A stretch of 24,830 nucleotides of DNA, taken from the NCBI GenBank assembly GCA_030639955.1, contig DAOWKH010000045.1, positions 1 through 24,830 on the forward strand, given 5' to 3'. Below the pieces are notes generated by a model. That model was not told the DNA's origin and ran no database searches. It saw only the letters and a list, made by a program, of their open reading frames with translations. Position numbers and translations under genes: made by a program. Numbering within the stretch: the stretch's first letter is position 1; each line of letters begins with the position of its first letter. Below, piece by piece: positions 3,805-21,236 of the stretch. This stretch comes from Candidatus Omnitrophota bacterium. Lineage in GTDB: Bacteria; Omnitrophota; 4484-213.

Positions 3805-4361
3805 TTCTTAATTAGTGCTAACACCTCCTGCCTTGTCTTCTCATTTTTCTTAAATGCCCCTCTTAAGGCGCTTGTAGTTACCAGTGTCCCCGGTTTTTTA
3901 ATTCCGCGCATCACCATACACAGATGCTCGGCTTCGATTATTACCAATACCCCTTTGGGCTGTAATTTTTTTACTATTAAATCGGCTATTTGATTGGTCA
4001 ACCTCTCCTGTATCTGGAGACGCTGAGACAAAAGAGATAAAACTCGCACAATCTTGCTCAATCCCACTACCTTATTATTGGCCGGAATATAGGCAATATG
4101 CGCCTTTCCCACAAAGGGGAGAATATGGTGTTCACAAATCGAGAAAAATGGAATATTCCTTAACAGAATTATCTCGTCATAACTCTCGGAAAATGTTTTT
4201 TTTAATTCCTGGGCGGCATCTTTTTCATAGCCCTGAAAAATCTCCGCACACATTCGGGCAACCCGTTCGGGCGTATCTTTAAGCCCTTCTCTTTTTGCAT
4301 CCTCGCCAATGGCTTCTAAAAATATTCTTACCGCTTGCTCAATTTTCTTTTTATCCATCAT
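3801..4361 (-). CDS. folE: GTP cyclohydrolase I
   Basis: [55 protein letters not shown]. Confidence 0.97.
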
Positions 4362-5740
4362 TTTCCTATGCAGAACCGACTAAAAATTCTCTCCAAAATA
4401 TCATCGCTTGCGGTCTCGCCACTAATCTCTCCCAGACAATCAATTGCCTCTTTTAGGTCCACGGCTAAAAATTCTTCGCTCAGCTTTTTTTCTATTCCCT
4501 GCTTAAAGTTTATCAGTGCCTGTTTTGCTTTTATCAAGCTTCCTTTCTGGCGGAGATTAGAAATTAGCACCTCGCTTGCTGAACTGCATACCTCTCCCTG
4601 CCAAACAGAATTAGTAATCGCCTTATCTAATAACGGCAAATTCCTTTCCTCGGTTGCCGAAATACTTACGAGCTCTGCTTCTAAATCTAAATCCTGGCAG
4701 AGCTTCCGGGGAGAAACTTTCTGGGGTAAATCAATTTTATTAATTATCACGAGCAACTTCTTACCCTTGATTTCTTTGGCAATCTGTTTATCTTCTTTGG
4801 CAATATCTGTAGAGCCATCAATTATAAATAGAATCAGGTCTGCTTTTTTTAAAGAATTCTGACTGCGGATAATCCCCTCTTTCTCTACAACGCCTTCGCT
4901 TTCCCTTATGCCGGCAGTATCTACAAGACAAAAAGGAATTCCCTTTAAGTCAATTATTTCTTCAACTGTGTCGCGGGTCGTTCCAGGCACTGGAGTTACA
5001 ATGGCGCGGTCTTTTTTCAACAAAACATTAAAAATGCTTGACTTCCCCACATTCGGCTTGCCGCAGATGGCAGTCAGAATTCCCTTTCTCAAAATAATCC
5101 CTTGTTCTGCCTTCTCTAAGATTTTCTCAATCTTTGCCTTTGCTTTCTCTGTCTTTCTTAAAATCTCTTCCGGCGAAACAAAAGGGATATCCTCCTCGGG
5201 AAAATCTATTTCGGCCTCAATCTGCGTCCTTATATCCAACAAACTCTCTCTAATTTCTCTAATTTTAAGCGATAAATGTCCCTCTAATTGCCCTACTGCT
5301 GCCCTCAGACCGGCCTCGGTCTTTGCCTGAATAATGCTTAAAACCGCCTCGGCTTGAGAAAGGTCAATGCGTCCATTCAGAAATGCTCTTTTGGTGAACT
5401 CGCCGGGCTCGGCTAATCGCACTCCGTTTTCAATGACTAAATCTAAAATTTTCTTTAAAACAACAATCCCGCTGTGGCAGTTAATTTCAACAGTATCTTC
5501 TCGGGTATAACTCTGGCTTGCAAACATTACGCTTAACAGCACTTCATCAATTATTCTGCCTCGGGATTCTATGATATGTCCATAATGTAATTTATGACTT
5601 TCAAATCTAAATGGCTTTTTTTCTTGGGGAGAGCGAAAAATTTTATCGGCAACAAGAAAAGCTCTCTTGCCGCTTATGCGCACAATCCCAATCCCTCCCT
5701 CTCCTAAAGGAGTGGAGATAGCAGTAATGGTATTGTTCAT
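4358..5740 (-). CDS. mnmE: tRNA modification GTPase MnmE/TrmE
   Basis: [58 protein letters not shown]-terminal FSRFCIGK. Confidence 0.98.
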
Positions 5741-5744
5741 ACTT

Positions 5745-5854
5745 CAAAACCAAATACCAAATATCAAATATCAAAAACACATATTAAAAATGTAAAAATA
5801 TTTTTTGTATTTTTGGTTTGTATATTTGATTTTTTATTTTTGATTTTTGATATT
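5745..5854. repeat. Inverted heptamer-array element (caaatat / atatttg-atttttg units)
   Basis: Arms caaatac-caaatat-caaatat-caaaaac and atatttg-atttttt-atttttg-atttttg. Inner core shared with 21097-21236. Contains the folC stop codon. Confidence 0.8.
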
Positions 5855-7066
5855 CTTTATCGCTTCTCCCGCTAAATAAAATGAGCCGCTGATTAAAATT
5901 AGGGTATTGGCTGAAGCACCTTTGTAGGCAAGATTTAAGGCCTCTTTTATATTTCTTGCTCCTTCTCCTTGCTCGCCGCTTCTTCTTCTTAACCCTTTTA
6001 TTGTCTCACAGCGTCGGTTTTTAAAGCGGGTAAAGATTATCCTTTTGCAAGCGGGGAAAATAACCCTGCTCATTCCTTCAATATCCTTATCTCTGCAGGC
6101 GGAAAAGATGAGCACTATTTCAGCAGAGGGAAACCGTTTTTCTATCGCCTTTTTCAAAAATTCTGTCGCTGCGGGATTATGGGCTCCATCTAATAAAATT
6201 TGATATTTTTTATTTTGTTTAATGATTGAAATTTCTTCTAATCTTCCCGGCCAATATGCATTTCTAAGTCCTTGTTTTATAGCTCTTTGCGAAACTGGGA
6301 ATTTTTCGCTTAATTTCTCCAAAACTTTAAGTGCTAAGAGGGCATTCTCCGGTTTTCTTAGCGACACATCCCGAGCCTCAAATAACTGAGCATCTTTCTC
6401 TTTACATCTCTTTTCAATTATCTTTCTAACCTCTTTCTTCTGCGGAGCAGAGACCACCTGCGCGCCTCTTTTGATTATCCCCACCTTTTCTTTAGCAATT
6501 TTAGTTAAGCTATTACCTAATTCCTGACAATGCTCAAGAGCAATAGGAGTGAGGACACAGAGCAAAGGGTTAACAACATTAGTGGCATCCAATCTTCCTC
6601 CCATTCCTGTCTCAATAATTGCTAAATCTACCTTTTGTTGAGCAAAATAGAGAAAAGCGGCAGCGGTGAGCGCTTCAAAAAAACTGAGTTTGTCTCTGTT
6701 TTTCCTTTCTATCTGAGCAATTCTGTCTATTGAATCGGCAAAATCCTTTCTGGAAATTATGTCCTTAAATAACCCCGTTGAGGAATTAAGCCAGGAGCCG
6801 CGAATCCTTTCTCTTGGACAGATTAAATGCGGAGAAGAAAAAAAACCGACTTTATAACCCTCTTCTTTTAATACCCTGAAAATAAAATTTCCTACTGTCC
6901 CCTTTCCATTGCTACCAGTAATATGGACGGACAAAAATTTTCTCTGCGGATTTCCTACTGCTTGCAAAAAATTTCTTATCCTCTTTAGGTTAAAACTACA
7001 AGTTCCTCTATTTTGCTCATAATTAGAAAGAGAATTGAGGTAGGTTATTGCCTGGGAGTAAAGCAT
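5834..7066 (-). CDS. folC: Bifunctional folylpolyglutamate synthase/dihydrofolate synthase
   Basis: VHITGSNGKGT, FSSPHL, ETGMGGRLDATNV, WPGRLE, LDGAHNP, SGSFYLAGE. Start moved to ATG 7066 (MLYSQAITYL) because the track's first 11 codons lie inside the tRNA. Confidence 0.95.
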   Translation of the reverse strand: MLYSQAITYLNSLSNYEQNRGTCSFNLKRIRNFLQAVGNPQRKFLSVHITGSNGKGTVGNFIFRVLKEEGYKVGFFSSPHLICPRERIRGSWLNSSTGLFKDIISRKDFADSIDRIAQIERKNRDKLSFFEALTAAAFLYFAQQKVDLAIIETGMGGRLDATNVVNPLLCVLTPIALEHCQELGNSLTKIAKEKVGIIKRGAQVVSAPQKKEVRKIIEKRCKEKDAQLFEARDVSLRKPENALLALKVLEKLSEKFPVSQRAIKQGLRNAYWPGRLEEISIIKQNKKYQILLDGAHNPAATEFLKKAIEKRFPSAEIVLIFSACRDKDIEGMSRVIFPACKRIIFTRFKNRRCETIKGLRRRSGEQGEGARNIKEALNLAYKGASANTLILISGSFYLAGEAIKNIKNQK

Positions 7067-7069
7067 AGT

Positions 7070-7154
7070 TGGTGCCGGAGAGAGGATTTGAACCTCCAAG
7101 GGTTACCCCACATGGTCCTAAACCATGCGTGTCTGCCAATTTCACCACTCCGGC
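7070..7154 (-). tRNA. tRNA-Leu (anticodon TAG), CCA encoded
   Basis: Minus strand gccggag...gtgaaattggcagacac-g-catggtttaggaccatg-tggggtaaccct-t-ggaggttcaaatcctct-ctccggc-acca; 85-nt class II cloverleaf with variable arm. Confidence 0.97.
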
Positions 7155-7162
7155 ATTCTGAA

Positions 7163-8014
7163 TTACCCTATTCCCTGCTTCATAAATTGGAGCAAAATAG
7201 GGCCGGCAACAATTATCAAAACTACCGGCAAAATAAACAGCATTAACGGAATAAGCAGCTTTACCGGCGCCTGCAGGGCAAGTTTTTCTCCGCGTTGAAA
7301 CCGCTGGAGTCGAACCTCCTGGGAAAGATTATGCAATGCCTCAGCAATGCTGGTACCCATTCGGTCGGCTTGAACTAATGTGCGCACGAAAGAAGAAACA
7401 TCAGGTATGTCTATTCTCTCTCCCATATTCAACAAGGCCTCCCTGCGCGACCTACCAATTCTGGTTTCCTGCCACATTCGTCCCAACTCTTCAATGAAGG
7501 AATTGGGCTTACTTTCTCTCACTACCCGATTTACGGCTAACATAAAATCAAGCCCTGCCTCTACAGAAAGAGATAATAAATCCACAACATCCGGGAGGGC
7601 ATGCCTAATCTCTCGCTGCCTATTTTGAATCTTATTCCTTAACCATAAATCGGGAAGGAAAAAGCCGATGACAAACGACAACATAAAATGTAGCGGGCTT
7701 ATCCCTCTACTAATCAATAAATAAAACAGGCAGCAAAGAACGCTTGCTATCTCTTTTAAGGATAAAAATTGCTCAGCTGTGAATTCTGCACCTCCGCAAA
7801 CCAATCTCCTTTGTAAACTTTCCTTTAGCCCGGGGAGATTTAAACGCTTATTCAAAGGAGCCAGAAAGTCCAAAACAACCTTGGCTTCCTTTTTTTCTTC
7901 TCCTTCGGAAATCAGACGCTGACGAATTCTTTGCTCACTGCGTTTGGGAAAGAAAGAAATCACCAAAATAAGAACCGCCGTAAAGATAAACAGTAAAGAG
8001 ATGAAATAAATCAT
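7163..8014 (-). CDS. tadC: Tad pilus inner-membrane platform protein TadC (T2SS F family)
   Basis: ALPDVVDLLSLSVEAGLDF, IGRSRREAL, LVQADRMGTSIAEAL, APVKLLIPL..FILP. Confidence 0.88.
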   Translation of the reverse strand: MIYFISLLFIFTAVLILVISFFPKRSEQRIRQRLISEGEEKKEAKVVLDFLAPLNKRLNLPGLKESLQRRLVCGGAEFTAEQFLSLKEIASVLCCLFYLLISRGISPLHFMLSFVIGFFLPDLWLRNKIQNRQREIRHALPDVVDLLSLSVEAGLDFMLAVNRVVRESKPNSFIEELGRMWQETRIGRSRREALLNMGERIDIPDVSSFVRTLVQADRMGTSIAEALHNLSQEVRLQRFQRGEKLALQAPVKLLIPLMLFILPVVLIIVAGPILLQFMKQGIG

Positions 8015-10142: not shown

Positions 10143-10674
10143 TCAATAACCTACTCTCCCGCCAAATATATCCTAAACCTGAAACAATAGTGAGCAAACC
10201 GGCGCTGTTTGCTACTATCCTAAAGTAGGGAAATTTCAACAAGACCAAAACTATGGTGAACATCTGAAAAAAGGTAGTGAGCTTTCCTAATCTATTAGGA
10301 CTCACTGTTTTTCTCCCGCTAATTATGTAAATAACAACAAATCCTAAGCCGATAATCAAATCGCGGCTAATTACAGTGATGGTAACCCACGATGGAATAC
10401 GAAAAGGAAATCTGCCTATCGTAAGACAAAGAAAGATGGAATTGATAAGAAACTTATCGGCCAAGGGGTCTAAAAATCTGCCCAATTCTGTCCGTTGACC
10501 TCGCTTACGGGCTATATAGCCGTCAATAACATCTGTGAGAATCGCTACTAAAAAAAGAGAGAAAGCAATCCATCTTAGAATGTCGTTTTGGGGGGTATAA
10601 TAAACAAGGGAAATGACAATAAAAGGAATTAATAAAATCCTTAAAACCGTAAGTTTATTAGGTAGATTTAGCAT
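10132..10674 (-). CDS. pgsA: CDP-alcohol phosphatidyltransferase (phosphatidylglycerophosphate synthase)
   Basis: MLNLPNKLTVLRI, TDVIDGYIARK...LGRFLDPLADK, LGKLTTFFQM. Start placed at ATG 10674 behind AGAGGA. Confidence 0.88.
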   Translation of the reverse strand: MLNLPNKLTVLRILLIPFIVISLVYYTPQNDILRWIAFSLFLVAILTDVIDGYIARKRGQRTELGRFLDPLADKFLINSIFLCLTIGRFPFRIPSWVTITVISRDLIIGLGFVVIYIISGRKTVSPNRLGKLTTFFQMFTIVLVLLKFPYFRIVANSAGLLTIVSGLGYIWRESRLLNER

Positions 10675-10720
10675 ACATTCCTCTATCAAGTACTAATTTT
10701 TATATTTACTACCACACTTT

Positions 10721-10885
10721 GAGAGGCTCGGCTTGTGTCGCTAAGAAGCCGTTGCGCAGACTGAGCGGGCATGGTTTTGCCGAAGCGTAGCGAAGGCAAA
10801 GAGCGAAGCCGAGCACCGAGCAGCAATTTGCTCGCTGGGCAAATTGACTGCGTGCTTCGTGCGACCAAGCCGAGCCGAGCTCTGC
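10721..10885. other. GC-rich multi-branched palindromic element between lepB and pgsA (candidate ncRNA or MITE-like element)
   Basis: Outer stem ggctcggcttg(t)gtcgc / gcgaccaagccgagcc, further stems gaagc/gcttc and gcgcag/ctgcgt, and two inner hairpins. Confidence 0.65.
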
Positions 10886-10888
10886 TCA

Positions 10889-11428
10889 TCATCGTAGAAT
10901 TCTGAATCTCTTTGGCGGCCAGTAAATTAGAAATGCCCTTCCTGACAGATTCTTGCGAGGAACAAATCCCCAATAACGGCTATCTCTGCTTACTGCACTG
11001 TTATCTCCCAAGACAAAAAAACTCTTCTCGGGGACCTTTACAGCTACACCTTCTTTGGCGTATTTCCCGTAATTATAATAATAGAGCTTTCTCAGAATTT
11101 CATTGTCGCTGGACTCACCATTTATAAAAATATTGCCGTTATTAATCTCTACTGTTTCTCCTTCAGAGACAATCAGCCGCTTGATAAAATCCCTCTTTGG
11201 ATTTAGAGGGTATTTGAATACAATTATATCACCTCGCTGGGGTTTTTTAAAGCGATAGAGTAATTTATTTACCAAAATGCGGTCGCCCTGCATCAGAGTA
11301 GGACGCATCGAGCCGGTAGGTATTTTAAATGCCTGGACAAAAAATGTGCGGATAAACATTGCCAGAACAAAGGCAATTAGAATCGATTCTACATACTCCC
11401 GGATTATTTGTTTAGTATTTTGATTCAT
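10889..11428 (-). CDS. lepB: Signal peptidase I
   Basis: FKIPTGSMRPTL (catalytic Ser), RDFIKR (Lys), GDNSAVSRDSRYWG. Start at ATG 11428 forms an ATGA overlap with the lepA stop. Confidence 0.96.
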   Translation of the reverse strand: MNQNTKQIIREYVESILIAFVLAMFIRTFFVQAFKIPTGSMRPTLMQGDRILVNKLLYRFKKPQRGDIIVFKYPLNPKRDFIKRLIVSEGETVEINNGNIFINGESSDNEILRKLYYYNYGKYAKEGVAVKVPEKSFFVLGDNSAVSRDSRYWGFVPRKNLSGRAFLIYWPPKRFRILR

Positions 11429-13209
11429 ATCTTCAGCACCGCCCGAAATGCTTCTTGAGGGATTTTCACTTCCCCTATCTGCTTCATCTTTTTTTTGCCG
11501 GCTTTCTGTTTCTCCCAGAGTTTTCTCTTGCGGGTAATATCGCCGCCATAGCATTTAGCGGTAACATTTTTCTTCAGTGGCTTTATAGTTGCCCGGGCAA
11601 TAATCTGACTATCGATTGCCGCCTGAATAACTACCTCAAAGAGATGCTTGGGAATTACATTTTTTAATCTTTCTACTAAATTCAGGCCTCTCTGGCGGAC
11701 TTTATCTCTGGGCACAACCAGAGATAAGGCATCGACCGGCTTGCCATTGATTAAAATAGACAACTTGACCAGCTCCCCTCTAAAATATCCCTTAAATTCA
11801 TAATCAAAAGAGGCATAACCCTGGGTAATTGATTTTATTTTATCATAAAAATCAACAATAATCTCGGATAAAGGGAGATCGTAATTTAGCAATGACCGTC
11901 CTTCATCCAAATATTCCAGACCTTTATAAATCCCTCTCCGCTCCTGAGATAACTCCATTATCTTACCAATATAGGCCGCAGGGGTAATAATAAACCCTTT
12001 TATATAAGGTTCCTTAATCTCCTCTATCTCTACGGTGCAAGGAAACTCGCCGACATTGTTCACTTCTATCTCCTCTCCATTACTAATTTTGATTCTATAA
12101 GTGACATTGGCGGCAGTGCTGATTAGTTCCAGATTAAATTCTCGTTCTAATCTCTCCTGGATAATTTCCATATGCAGGAGCCCTAAGAAGCCGCAACGGA
12201 AACCCTGTCCAAAAGAAGGAGAAGAATCGGGTTGAAAGACGAATGAGCTATCATTCAATCGCAGTTTTTCTAATGCTTTTCGCAAAGATAGAAAATCGCC
12301 CTCTCGCACAGGATAGATTCCGCTAAATACCAAAGGAGAGGGTTGTTTAAATTCTGCTAAACCTAATTCTTCCTGCGAAAAAGCGGGTTCGCTAATCGTA
12401 TCCCCTATCTTTACATCTTGCAGCTGGTGAATATTGGCGCTAAAAAATCCTACTTCCCCGCAGTTTAATTGCTCAACAGCCCGCGGGTGGGGGTCAAAGA
12501 TACCCACCTTTTGCACCTGATGAACCTCATTAGTGGCTAAAAAGCGAATATCCCTGCCCGGCTTCAGGCAACCTCCGAAAATACGCACATAGACAATTAC
12601 CCCCTGATAGGTATCAAATTTAGAATCAAAGATAAGGGCTTGCAAGGGCTTTAGGGCTTTGGGCGGCGGAATCCGCTCAATTACTGCCTCAAAGACCTTC
12701 TCAATTCCTCGGCCATGTTTGGCGCTTATTAGAAGAATTCCCTCGTCATCTATTTTTAATATACTCTTTATCTGTTCCTTTGTCCTCTCAATATCAGCGT
12801 TCTTTAGGTCAATTTTATTGATAATCGGGATAAGCACAAGATTATTTTGCTGGGCTAAATGCAGATTGGCAATTGTCTGCGCCTCCACCCCCTGGCTGGC
12901 GTCAACCAAAAGCAGCGCCCCTTCGCAGGCGGCTAAACTCTTAGAGACCTCATAGTTAAAATCTACATGGCCGGGGGTATCGATTAAATTCAGGATATAT
13001 TCCTCGCCAGCGAATTTATAAACCAACCTCACTGCCCGCGCCTTTATCGTAATCCCCCGCTCGCGCTCCAGCTCCATATCGTCAAGAACCTGTTCTCTAA
13101 ACTCGCGCTCGGAGATTGCTCCGGTCCGCTCCAAAAGGCGGTCGGCAAGCGTGGACTTGCCGTGGTCAATATGGGCAATAATAGAAAAATTGCGGATGTT
13201 TTTGTTCAC
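11425..13209 (-). CDS. lepA: Elongation factor 4 (LepA)
   Basis: IRNFSIIAHIDHGKSTLADR, ERERGITIKA, FRCGFLGLLHMEI, KCYGGDITRKRKL. GTG start. Confidence 0.98.
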   Translation of the reverse strand: MNKNIRNFSIIAHIDHGKSTLADRLLERTGAISEREFREQVLDDMELERERGITIKARAVRLVYKFAGEEYILNLIDTPGHVDFNYEVSKSLAACEGALLLVDASQGVEAQTIANLHLAQQNNLVLIPIINKIDLKNADIERTKEQIKSILKIDDEGILLISAKHGRGIEKVFEAVIERIPPPKALKPLQALIFDSKFDTYQGVIVYVRIFGGCLKPGRDIRFLATNEVHQVQKVGIFDPHPRAVEQLNCGEVGFFSANIHQLQDVKIGDTISEPAFSQEELGLAEFKQPSPLVFSGIYPVREGDFLSLRKALEKLRLNDSSFVFQPDSSPSFGQGFRCGFLGLLHMEIIQERLEREFNLELISTAANVTYRIKISNGEEIEVNNVGEFPCTVEIEEIKEPYIKGFIITPAAYIGKIMELSQERRGIYKGLEYLDEGRSLLNYDLPLSEIIVDFYDKIKSITQGYASFDYEFKGYFRGELVKLSILINGKPVDALSLVVPRDKVRQRGLNLVERLKNVIPKHLFEVVIQAAIDSQIIARATIKPLKKNVTAKCYGGDITRKRKLWEKQKAGKKKMKQIGEVKIPQEAFRAVLKI

Positions 13210-14603: not shown

Positions 14604-14652
14604 CTCCTTTCCTTCCTCGCCGTAGGCGAGAGCCTGAGCGAAGCGAAGGATA
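14604..14652 (-). repeat. 49-nt leader element including the SD, copy 2 (porin)
   Basis: 46/49 identical to 336-384. Confidence 0.9.
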
Positions 14653-14782
14653 ATCTTTTGTTTGTCCTTTCCTTACTTGCCACCCCGACGTATCGTCGGG
14701 CTAAACTTATTTTTTCTCTTCTCTTCTATTGAAAATAGAAAGCAGATGCCTACGGGACGCATCCCTTTCTACTAATAAGGAT

Positions 14783-21078: not shown

Positions 21079-21096
21079 TTTCCTCGCTTTGCTCGT

Positions 21097-21236
21097 CAGA
21101 AATCAAAAATCAAAGACCAAAAATCAAATACACATACTTAAAAATGTAAAAACTTAAAAGAATTAAGAAAAATTCAAGATATTTTTGTATATTTGGTTTG
21201 TGTTTTTGATATTTGATATTTGATATTTGATATTTA
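21097..21236. repeat. Inverted heptamer-array element (caaaaat / atatttg units)
   Basis: Arms cagaaat-caaaaat-caaagac-caaaaat-caaatac and (atatttg)x4, ending at the accA stop; homologous to 5745-5854. Confidence 0.85.

Follow-up and report, generated by a model that had tools for sequence, protein, structure and literature searches.

The lepB–pgsA junction carries a recently inserted GC-rich block

The window, that is, the whole 24,830-nt stretch of DNA analysed, is contig C112 of the Omnitrophota genome G000 (953 kb, 133 contigs, 84.6% complete). Within it, a segment at 10721–10885 has a G+C content of 55% compared to about 40% in its surroundings and is flanked by two minus-strand genes. 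One of them, lepB (10889–11554, minus strand), was confirmed as Peptidase_S26, and the other encodes a CDP-alcohol phosphatidyltransferase of the pgsA type, the start of which is most likely the ATG at 10674. An earlier reading made from the sequence alone (the sequence-only reading) had named the same two neighbours and had placed the beginning of the element directly after the tandem TGA stops of lepB; both statements were borne out, as the stops (10886–10891, minus strand) adjoin the 3′ end of the inserted block.

Comparison with a sister species (G002) showed that at the corresponding locus on its contig C40 lepB and pgsA overlap at ATGA (…CGATGATGAATC…), with no counterpart of 10675–10885. 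Since nothing lies between the two genes in the sister species, the copy in the window is an insertion, and the block at 10675–10885 is a recent one. As delimited by this comparison, the block (plus strand) consists of a 5′ leader, the folded element and a short 3′ tail. The leader (10675–10720, about 45 nt) is common to another copy in the same genome, on contig C100, and homology between the two copies spans 10690–10890. On the strand of the genes, the leader carries a Shine-Dalgarno-like run, GAGGAA, five bases 5′ of the pgsA ATG at 10674. A search of the window for consensus promoters and terminators found neither.

The element folds into a three-way junction with an invariant unpaired core

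RNA folding gave −89.6 kcal/mol for the plus strand of the element (z −5.5 against shuffles) and −73.8 kcal/mol for the minus strand (z −2.9), and folding with DNA parameters gave z-scores of −5.6 and −4.7, respectively. No shuffled sequence folded as well as the element, and the strong multi-branched structure proposed earlier for 10721–10885 was thus upheld (RNA z −5.5 on the plus strand). The layout comprises a closing stem P1 of 10–30 bp, the sequence of which is particular to each lineage, a stem P2 of about 5 bp, a three-way junction, and two arms, A and B. Arm A is made up of P3a, a GCA/GA internal loop, P3b, a large internal loop and a hypervariable hairpin, hp1; the large loop has GAGCGGGCAYGG(U) on its 5′ side and GAGCGA on its 3′ side, both invariant. 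Arm B is a 12-bp stem, P4, with a bulged A and an invariant 7-nt loop, N-CGC-N-GG. Altogether, about 30 unpaired nucleotides are invariant across phyla.

In the window copy (all parts on the plus strand), the 5′ strand of P1 (10725–10741, with bulged T10736) pairs with its 3′ strand (10861–10876), with compensatory changes among the copies in the genome, and P2 is formed by GAAGC (10745–10749) and GCTTC (10854–10858). The 5′ side of arm A (10750–10762) contains the P3a strand (10750–10755), the GCA loop (10756–10758) and the P3b strand (10759–10762), the last of which is degenerate in this copy; it is followed by motif M1, GAGCGGGCATGG (10763–10774), on the 5′ side of the large internal loop, by the variable tip hairpin hp1 (10775–10800; TTTGCC-GAA-GC-GTA-GC-GAA-GGCAAA), and by the invariant motif M2, GAGCGA (10801–10806), on the 3′ side of that loop. 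The returning side of arm A (10807–10818) consists of the P3b strand (10807–10810), the GA loop (10811–10812) and the P3a strand (10813–10818). P4 occupies 10820–10851, with its loop TCGCTGG at 10832–10838 and the bulged A at 10847. Of 108 family members, drawn from several phyla, 102 had the M1 12-mer with at most two changes, and the stems of hp1 were wholly different in other copies, yet still paired.

Pairing was counted without alignment in 78 distinct sequences, with the invariant motifs as anchors. The result showed that P4 positions 2–7 were 98.7% Watson-Crick (shuffled mean 51%, shuffled maximum 56%), the base of hp1 89% (shuffled mean 41%) and P3b positions 2–4 84% (shuffled mean 32%); shuffling of partners never attained the observed values, and all four pair types were seen at most helix positions. 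Among the nine full copies in G000, unpaired stretches were identical and stems differed with compensation, 17 of the 52 predicted pairs showing double compensatory changes. In the consensus fold, the window copy has 49 pairs, all 49 of them Watson-Crick.

These data supported three of the helices proposed in the sequence-only reading, namely the 16-bp outer stem with one bulge (10725–10741/10861–10876), the gaagc/gcttc stem (10745–10749/10854–10858) and the tttgcc…ggcaaa hairpin (10776–10800). The stem of the caatttgc…gcaaattg hairpin was retained as well, but the GCT loop assigned to it was not: in 78 family members the loop is the 7-nt TCGCTGG. The proposed gcgcag/ctgcgt pairing is not a helix, as in the same 78 members CTGC (10848–10851) pairs with GCAG (10820–10823), which lengthens this second hairpin to 12 bp with bulged A10847. 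Two helices, P3a (10750–10755/10813–10818) and P3b (10759–10762/10807–10810), had been missed. A first RNAalifold model had contained a hairpin, CCC-GAGC-GGG, and a GCAC/GUGC helix; both were dropped and, like gcgcag/ctgcgt, rejected because distant members pair GCCC with GGGC after GAGCGA. A loop–loop contact between CUCGC in the P4 loop and GCGAG (the end of GAGCGA plus the next base) is possible in the model, and shows no covariation because neither side ever varies.

The tips of hp1 were C-GNA-G triloops in 25 of 40 triloops, and among 24 tetraloops there were one GNRA and no UNCG. In some copies, small REP hairpins are nested in hp1 and P4.

G-U pairs in the outer stems favour the strand antisense to lepB and pgsA

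To compare wobbles on the two strands, the 5′ end of each sequence was aligned with the reverse complement of its 3′ end, G-U and A-C being treated alike; counts from model-fitted alignments were set aside in favour of this unbiased one. In P1 and P2 of 76 sequences, 1386 Watson-Crick, 56 G-U and 10 A-C pairs were counted, so that G-U makes up about 4% of pairs in the outer stems; in the inner helices, G-U and A-C each account for about 1%. Since G-U exceeds A-C in P1/P2, the data favour selection for pairing on the modelled strand, which is the plus strand in the window and antisense to lepB and pgsA. The sequence-only reading had preferred the same strand on the basis of two G-U positions; its choice of strand agrees with the family-wide counts (56 against 10), whereas the two positions cited belong to pairs that the family does not support.

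The element is multicopy and belongs to a family found in many phyla

The element occupies 10 sites on 10 contigs of G000, and the same sites were recovered by BLAST, by nhmmer and by R1, a covariance model made from nine G000 copies. The other copies were 78–88% identical to that in the window, and one was cut by a contig end. The unit is about 140–170 nt long and reaches up to 12 copies per genome. Among 61 sampled genomes of the same phylum, 17 had full-length matches to R1, including the two other species of the genus, with 6 and 12 copies, and members of unrelated families with 6–9 copies each (G022, G032, G047, G050 and G052); no R1 match was obtained in two sister genera of the same family.

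A wider scan with the pattern CGAGCGGGCAYGG-N(12–42)-AGAGCGAG, covering one genome per GTDB species, returned at least 119 matching stretches. Among the matches listed were Omnitrophota, Aminicenantes, Saccharibacteria, Parcubacteria and other Patescibacteria metagenome-assembled genomes (MAGs), as well as WOR-3, Planctomycetes, Margulisiibacteriota, Krumholzibacteriales and other MAGs. R1 confirmed 71 of the listed matches, mostly across the whole model (positions 1–158) and with the same order of motifs. No match was found in 80 other Acidobacteriota, in which only 37 candidates per genome were scored, so that the sensitivity was limited. The same pattern had no match in 2.9 million viral contigs, and a phage origin was rejected on this ground. 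A coding function was also rejected, since the lengths of the hairpins vary out of frame and the ATG within the 12-mer GAGCGGGCAYGG is ACG in many copies.

Rfam 15, searched on both strands with the window and a 400-nt close-up at the gathering threshold and at E-values up to 10, gave no match at the element, and nor did 26 loci with diverse members. Over all these scans, only chance hairpins of the miRNA type appeared at the element (E above 0.3), and only tRNA and tmRNA, elsewhere, passed the threshold. Known self-cleaving classes, 6S, SRP, riboswitches and HEARO/omega RNA, none of which was matched at threshold, were set aside. No description of the family was found in the literature. The family is an uncatalogued mobile element with a three-armed fold and with invariant loops kept across several uncultivated phyla. 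The homologues that the sequence-only reading had called for are numerous and their covariation is very strong. Its option of an unannotated noncoding RNA, if taken as a single-copy gene tied to lepB and pgsA, is unsupported, given 10 dispersed copies and an empty site in the sister species.

Other repeats occur in the window. A 25-nt remnant of another copy of the element lies on the minus strand at 6355–6379, within a Mur-ligase/FolC-like open reading frame (5834–7099, minus strand); it consists of the 5′ arm of P1 plus TAAGAA, with 23 of 25 bases matching the reverse complement of the 5′ end of the element, and is placed in the linker between the Mur_ligase_M and Mur_ligase_C domains. The same site in G002 holds a 108-nt copy of the 3′ half in the opposite orientation. 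A 68-nt direct repeat (336–403 and 14604–14671; 85% identical) contains CTCGCCGCAGGCGAG, a small hairpin that forms the tip of hp1 in the copy on contig C32. AT-rich arrays of 7-nt units with complementary arms (5732–5854 and 21092–21234) correspond to the direct and inverted repeat families D1, D5 and I1–I4.

Copies come and go without the usual hallmarks of transposition

Comparison within the genus revealed several sites that differ in occupancy. The copy on contig C61 of G000 is missing from both G001 and G002, in which its flanking genes share an ATGA overlap, and the copies on C52 and C7 of G002 correspond to empty sites in G000; the copy on C27 is common to G000 and G001 at the same site. 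Copies at non-orthologous loci were 96–98% identical between species, compared to 82–85% for flanking orthologous genes. On contig C55 (G000, 6669–6856), the copy extends a DUF1015 gene by 183 nt without breaking its frame, adds about 61 residues and contains a nested 19-nt hairpin, ACTTGCCCGCAGGGCAAGT, inside the P4 arm. The same insertion is present in G001, and G002 retains a footprint of about 21 nt that resembles one arm of P1.

No target-site duplication was found at four filled/empty site pairs or around near-identical copies in the complete genome G062. Termini are not conserved, as the sequence of P1 differs between lineages. The flanks of 102 copies showed no fixed target motif and only a weak purine preference before P1.

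At one further site in G002 (contig C28, 4384–4523), a copy adjoins the 3′ end of a tRNA gene; the same tRNA site in G000 (contig C34, 12597–12666) carries a different 70-nt insert with the hairpin TCCGCCTCTGGCGGA, so that small repeats of different kinds have a hot spot here. Another dispersed repeat of about 160 nt, at 1583–1751 of locus L008 and some 600 nt away from the C27 copy, is unrelated to the element and has 83–91% identical copies on many contigs of G002 and G003.

The element has no recurrent gene partner and shows an orientation bias

No recurrent protein cluster was found next to the element, and 20 downstream genes were functionally unrelated. Because the neighbouring genes share no function, a riboswitch or leader can be excluded; the element does nothing specific for lepB or pgsA and is not their regulator.

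Between co-directional genes, all copies in G000 except at most one run antisense to the genes. The same holds for 8 of 8 such copies in G062, a complete Omnitrophota chromosome, and the Aminicenantes chromosome G061 has 6 antisense and 1–2 sense copies. With stricter gene calls, other lineages had 15 antisense and 11 sense copies, 9 between divergent genes and none between convergent genes; a cruder tally gave 36, 22, 19 and 2, respectively. The 3′ end of the element is often 2–10 nt from a stop codon, and nearly all copies have a gene start beside one end, the side and the strand that face it differing between lineages. The C52 copy of G002 carries AGGAG. The flanks of the 102 copies contained no U-tract, terminator or fixed −10 element. 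An explanation of the orientation by replication strand was rejected on the weak ground that two neighbouring copies in G062 have the same sign of GC skew and lie on opposite strands, the skew being confounded by gene strand; each of the two is antisense to its own flanking genes.

Candidate mobilizing enzymes

Y1_Tnp, of the IS200/RAYT type, was detected in 48 of the 61 genomes (16 of 17 with the element and 32 of 44 without it), and its presence is uninformative because it is so common. HUH/Y1 genes were the only candidate mobilizers found in all high-copy genomes. G000 contains two RAYT-like Y1 transposase genes. One lies on contig C42 (region 6900–7900, Y1 protein at 7155–7391) with a REP palindrome of its own, CACTTGCACC-TACGC-GGTGCAAGTG, on either side, and the other on contig C104 (region 4200–5050, Y1 protein at 4521–4796), likewise with its own, TTCCAAACCCGCATTGGAA; one of the TTCCAAACCCGCATTGGAA palindromes has a small hairpin nested in its loop. 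Mobilization by these RAYTs, as far as it would be read from adjacency, was rejected, since other REPs and not the element flank the two genes. As a hallmark of REPs, Di Nocera et al. (2013; PMC3733652) describe a GTAG or CGTC tag that is conserved at the 5′ foot of their palindromes. In the genus, P1 starts with GCGTAGG, GTGTAGG or GCGTCGG in some copies and with GGCTCGG or GACGCGG in others; its starts in other lineages are unrelated to these.

The reverse transcriptase domain RVT_1 was present in 17 of the 61 genomes and was not found in G000, G002, G047, G050 and G052, which have 8–12 copies each and are 85–97% complete, so that its absence is unproven. A retroelement, either SINE-like or a derivative of a group II intron, was rejected on this result. 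TnpB (PF07282) occurred in 1 of the 61 genomes, one without the element, and as TnpB is essentially absent from the sample of the phylum, the element is not an omega-RNA scaffold. An integron attC site was rejected, as there are no R″/R′ boxes and the copies are dispersed among housekeeping genes, and so was a classical MITE derived from a DDE element, for want of conserved terminal inverted repeats and target-site duplication.

Discussion

Our reading is that of a selfish, non-coding and non-autonomous mobile element that is moved in trans and acts via a folded single strand; that this strand is DNA handled by an HUH-type enzyme is favoured tentatively, at somewhat less than an even chance. 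The two ends pair as P1 and close a three-way junction with invariant unpaired nucleotides, each stem being free to change as long as it stays paired. Selection would see the fold of one single strand, here the strand antisense to lepB and pgsA. A trans-acting enzyme encoded elsewhere may recognize this fold via the invariant loops and would cut and join at the foot of P1, the likeliest chemistry being a single-stranded-DNA 'peel and paste' reaction such as that of the HUH/Y1 enzymes of IS200/IS605 and REP/RAYT. Copies do come and go between sister species at the stop/start junctions of tightly packed genes and sometimes land in frame inside genes. At the locus studied, the inserted leader would merely restore a ribosome-binding site for pgsA, which appears to be translationally coupled to lepB in the sister species. 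Part of this had been foreseen in the sequence-only reading, which offered a composite MITE folding as single-stranded DNA: the element is mobile, non-coding and folded, but, as a single integral unit whose core is shared by different phyla, it is neither composite nor a decayed cluster, and, lacking conserved terminal inverted repeats and target-site duplication, it is not a classical MITE either.

A single-stranded DNA substrate is favoured by the failure to find RVT_1 in high-copy genomes, the lack of expression signals, the in-frame intragenic copies, the nested REP hairpins, the C-GNA-G triloops, the near-pure Watson-Crick inner stems and the detection of Y1_Tnp in 16 of 17 positive genomes. 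Several observations weigh against it and against an HUH enzyme. An unpaired core in a three-way junction that is invariant across phyla is a signature of functional RNAs, and to our knowledge no such core is present in transposon ends or REPs, which differ between species. IS200/IS605 elements have two subterminal hairpins and no long end-to-end stem, and the strand expected to be active in them is that of the lagging-strand template, which in most cases is gene-sense; the folding strand of the element is antisense to flanking genes in the genus and in two complete genomes. The scarcity of copies between convergent genes is left unexplained, and both RAYT-like genes of G000 are flanked by their own, different REPs.

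The same observations bear on an alternative in which the fold works as RNA, as a new structured class, either a ribozyme or the RNA component of a ribonucleoprotein, encoded by multicopy genes that are moved about; we regard this as possible, though on the unlikely side. The internal loop and the CGC-N-GG loop would then form the active or bound core, perhaps docking through CUCGC/GCGAG, and sense copies inside operons would be harmful and lost. Invariant junction and loop nucleotides with covariation in all helices are typical of ribozymes and riboswitches, the two ends are brought together by the closing stem, as is the case in stable RNAs, the outer stems have far more G-U than A-C, with G-U at a level (about 4% of pairs) that is usual for RNA, and in three lineages the copies show a strong bias towards the orientation antisense to host transcription. 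However, no promoter is seen at a constant distance from the element, P1 is followed by neither a U-tract nor a terminator, other lineages have many sense as well as antisense copies (11 and 15), and copies occur in frame inside proteins. Moreover, G-U is almost lacking in the inner helices, GNRA and UNCG tetraloops are lacking, and no Rfam family, all known self-cleaving classes included, was matched. Since no reverse transcriptase was found in high-copy genomes, spread mediated by RNA would be without an engine. In its fuller form, this alternative would make the element a new functional RNA class, for example a self-processing ribozyme or the RNA of a ribonucleoprotein, in Omnitrophota, Aminicenantes, Patescibacteria and other uncultivated phyla, which multiplies and is purged when read in sense; in this form we hold it to be slightly more doubtful still.

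The position of copies next to gene starts could instead point to a cis element domesticated by the host, which might, for instance, serve as an intercistronic processing or stabilizing structure, insulate genes from translational coupling or bring a start signal to the downstream gene. Consistent with this, a gene start is nearly always beside one end and, with stricter gene calls, copies never lie between convergent genes; GAGGAA stands 5 nt before the pgsA ATG in the window block, AGGAG is supplied by the C52 copy of G002, and G001 has retained the C27 copy in its place. Against it, the neighbouring genes have no common function, the side and strand facing the gene start vary between lineages, sister species lack the element at the same junctions, and the strand selected for pairing is absent from host mRNA in this genus. 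These data make domestication improbable. A chance or decayed cluster of small REP-like hairpins without an integral unit, an outcome that the sequence-only reading had allowed for and that the richness of the genome in small hairpin repeats, the resemblance of hp1 to them and the nested hairpins in some copies might suggest, is contradicted by full-length matches (model positions 1–158) with the same motif order in many phyla, by covariation in every helix and by the failure of any shuffle to fold as well, and can be dismissed as extremely improbable.

The favoured reading, a mobile element acting through a folded single DNA strand, finds its nearest relatives in REPIN/REP-BIME elements mobilized by RAYTs, which are also non-coding, GC-rich, hairpin-forming, multicopy and non-autonomous, with no target duplication, with compensatory changes and with RAYT-like genes in the host genomes. 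However, REPs are species-specific simple palindromes of 20–40 nt, whereas the element is 150 nt long, forms a three-way junction and has about 30 unpaired nucleotides that do not vary between phyla, and the RAYT genes in G000 are flanked by other REPs, unlike the flanking by cognate REPs in REPIN systems. REPs are mostly located after genes, including between convergent genes, a position that the element avoids. The PATEs derived from IS200/IS605 likewise have no inverted terminal repeats recognized as duplex and no target duplication, show a strand-specific fold and an orientation bias, and use folded DNA as substrate. They differ in having a pair of separate subterminal hairpins and, as target, a fixed tetra- or pentanucleotide, whereas in the element the ends pair with each other and no fixed target was seen.

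Other families share fewer features. ERIC/IRU, Correia (NEMIS) and Rickettsia palindromic elements (RPE) are folding intergenic repeats of 100–170 bp inserted in operons, and RPE can also sit in frame inside protein genes; each of them is restricted to a single bacterial genus or family, folds into a long imperfect hairpin and is not known to have a multi-branched core conserved over several phyla, and Correia elements, unlike the element, have conserved inverted ends and a TA duplication. Integron attC sites are imperfect palindromes read as a folded single strand, with extrahelical bases and a location after co-directional stop codons. In contrast to attC, which conserves only shape, the element conserves core sequence, lacks RYYYAAC/GTTRRRY end boxes, and is scattered among housekeeping genes on many contigs instead of being arrayed. 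Mobile catalytic RNAs (group II introns, twister, hammerhead) have an invariant core with covarying peripheral helices, a patchy distribution over many phyla and several copies per genome, as does the element, which differs in having no Rfam match and no associated reverse transcriptase and does not reach the size of a group II intron.

REP, ERIC, MITEs and other small folded repeats are generally held to be lineage-specific and structurally simple. The family departs from this pattern in having a riboswitch-like architecture and an unpaired core that is invariant across phyla, and it moves without the usual hallmarks of transposons in genomes of about 1 Mb with almost no spare DNA. If the substrate is single-stranded DNA, no recognition structure known for such enzymes would be as elaborate as the element, which would also provide a handle for finding the enzyme; if it is RNA, the family would be a new and widespread class of more than 100 members with covariation support ready-made. 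Either way, the family accounts for the recurrence of unannotated GC-rich islands in genomes of Omnitrophota, Aminicenantes and Patescibacteria (candidate phyla radiation), and gives a model for annotating them.
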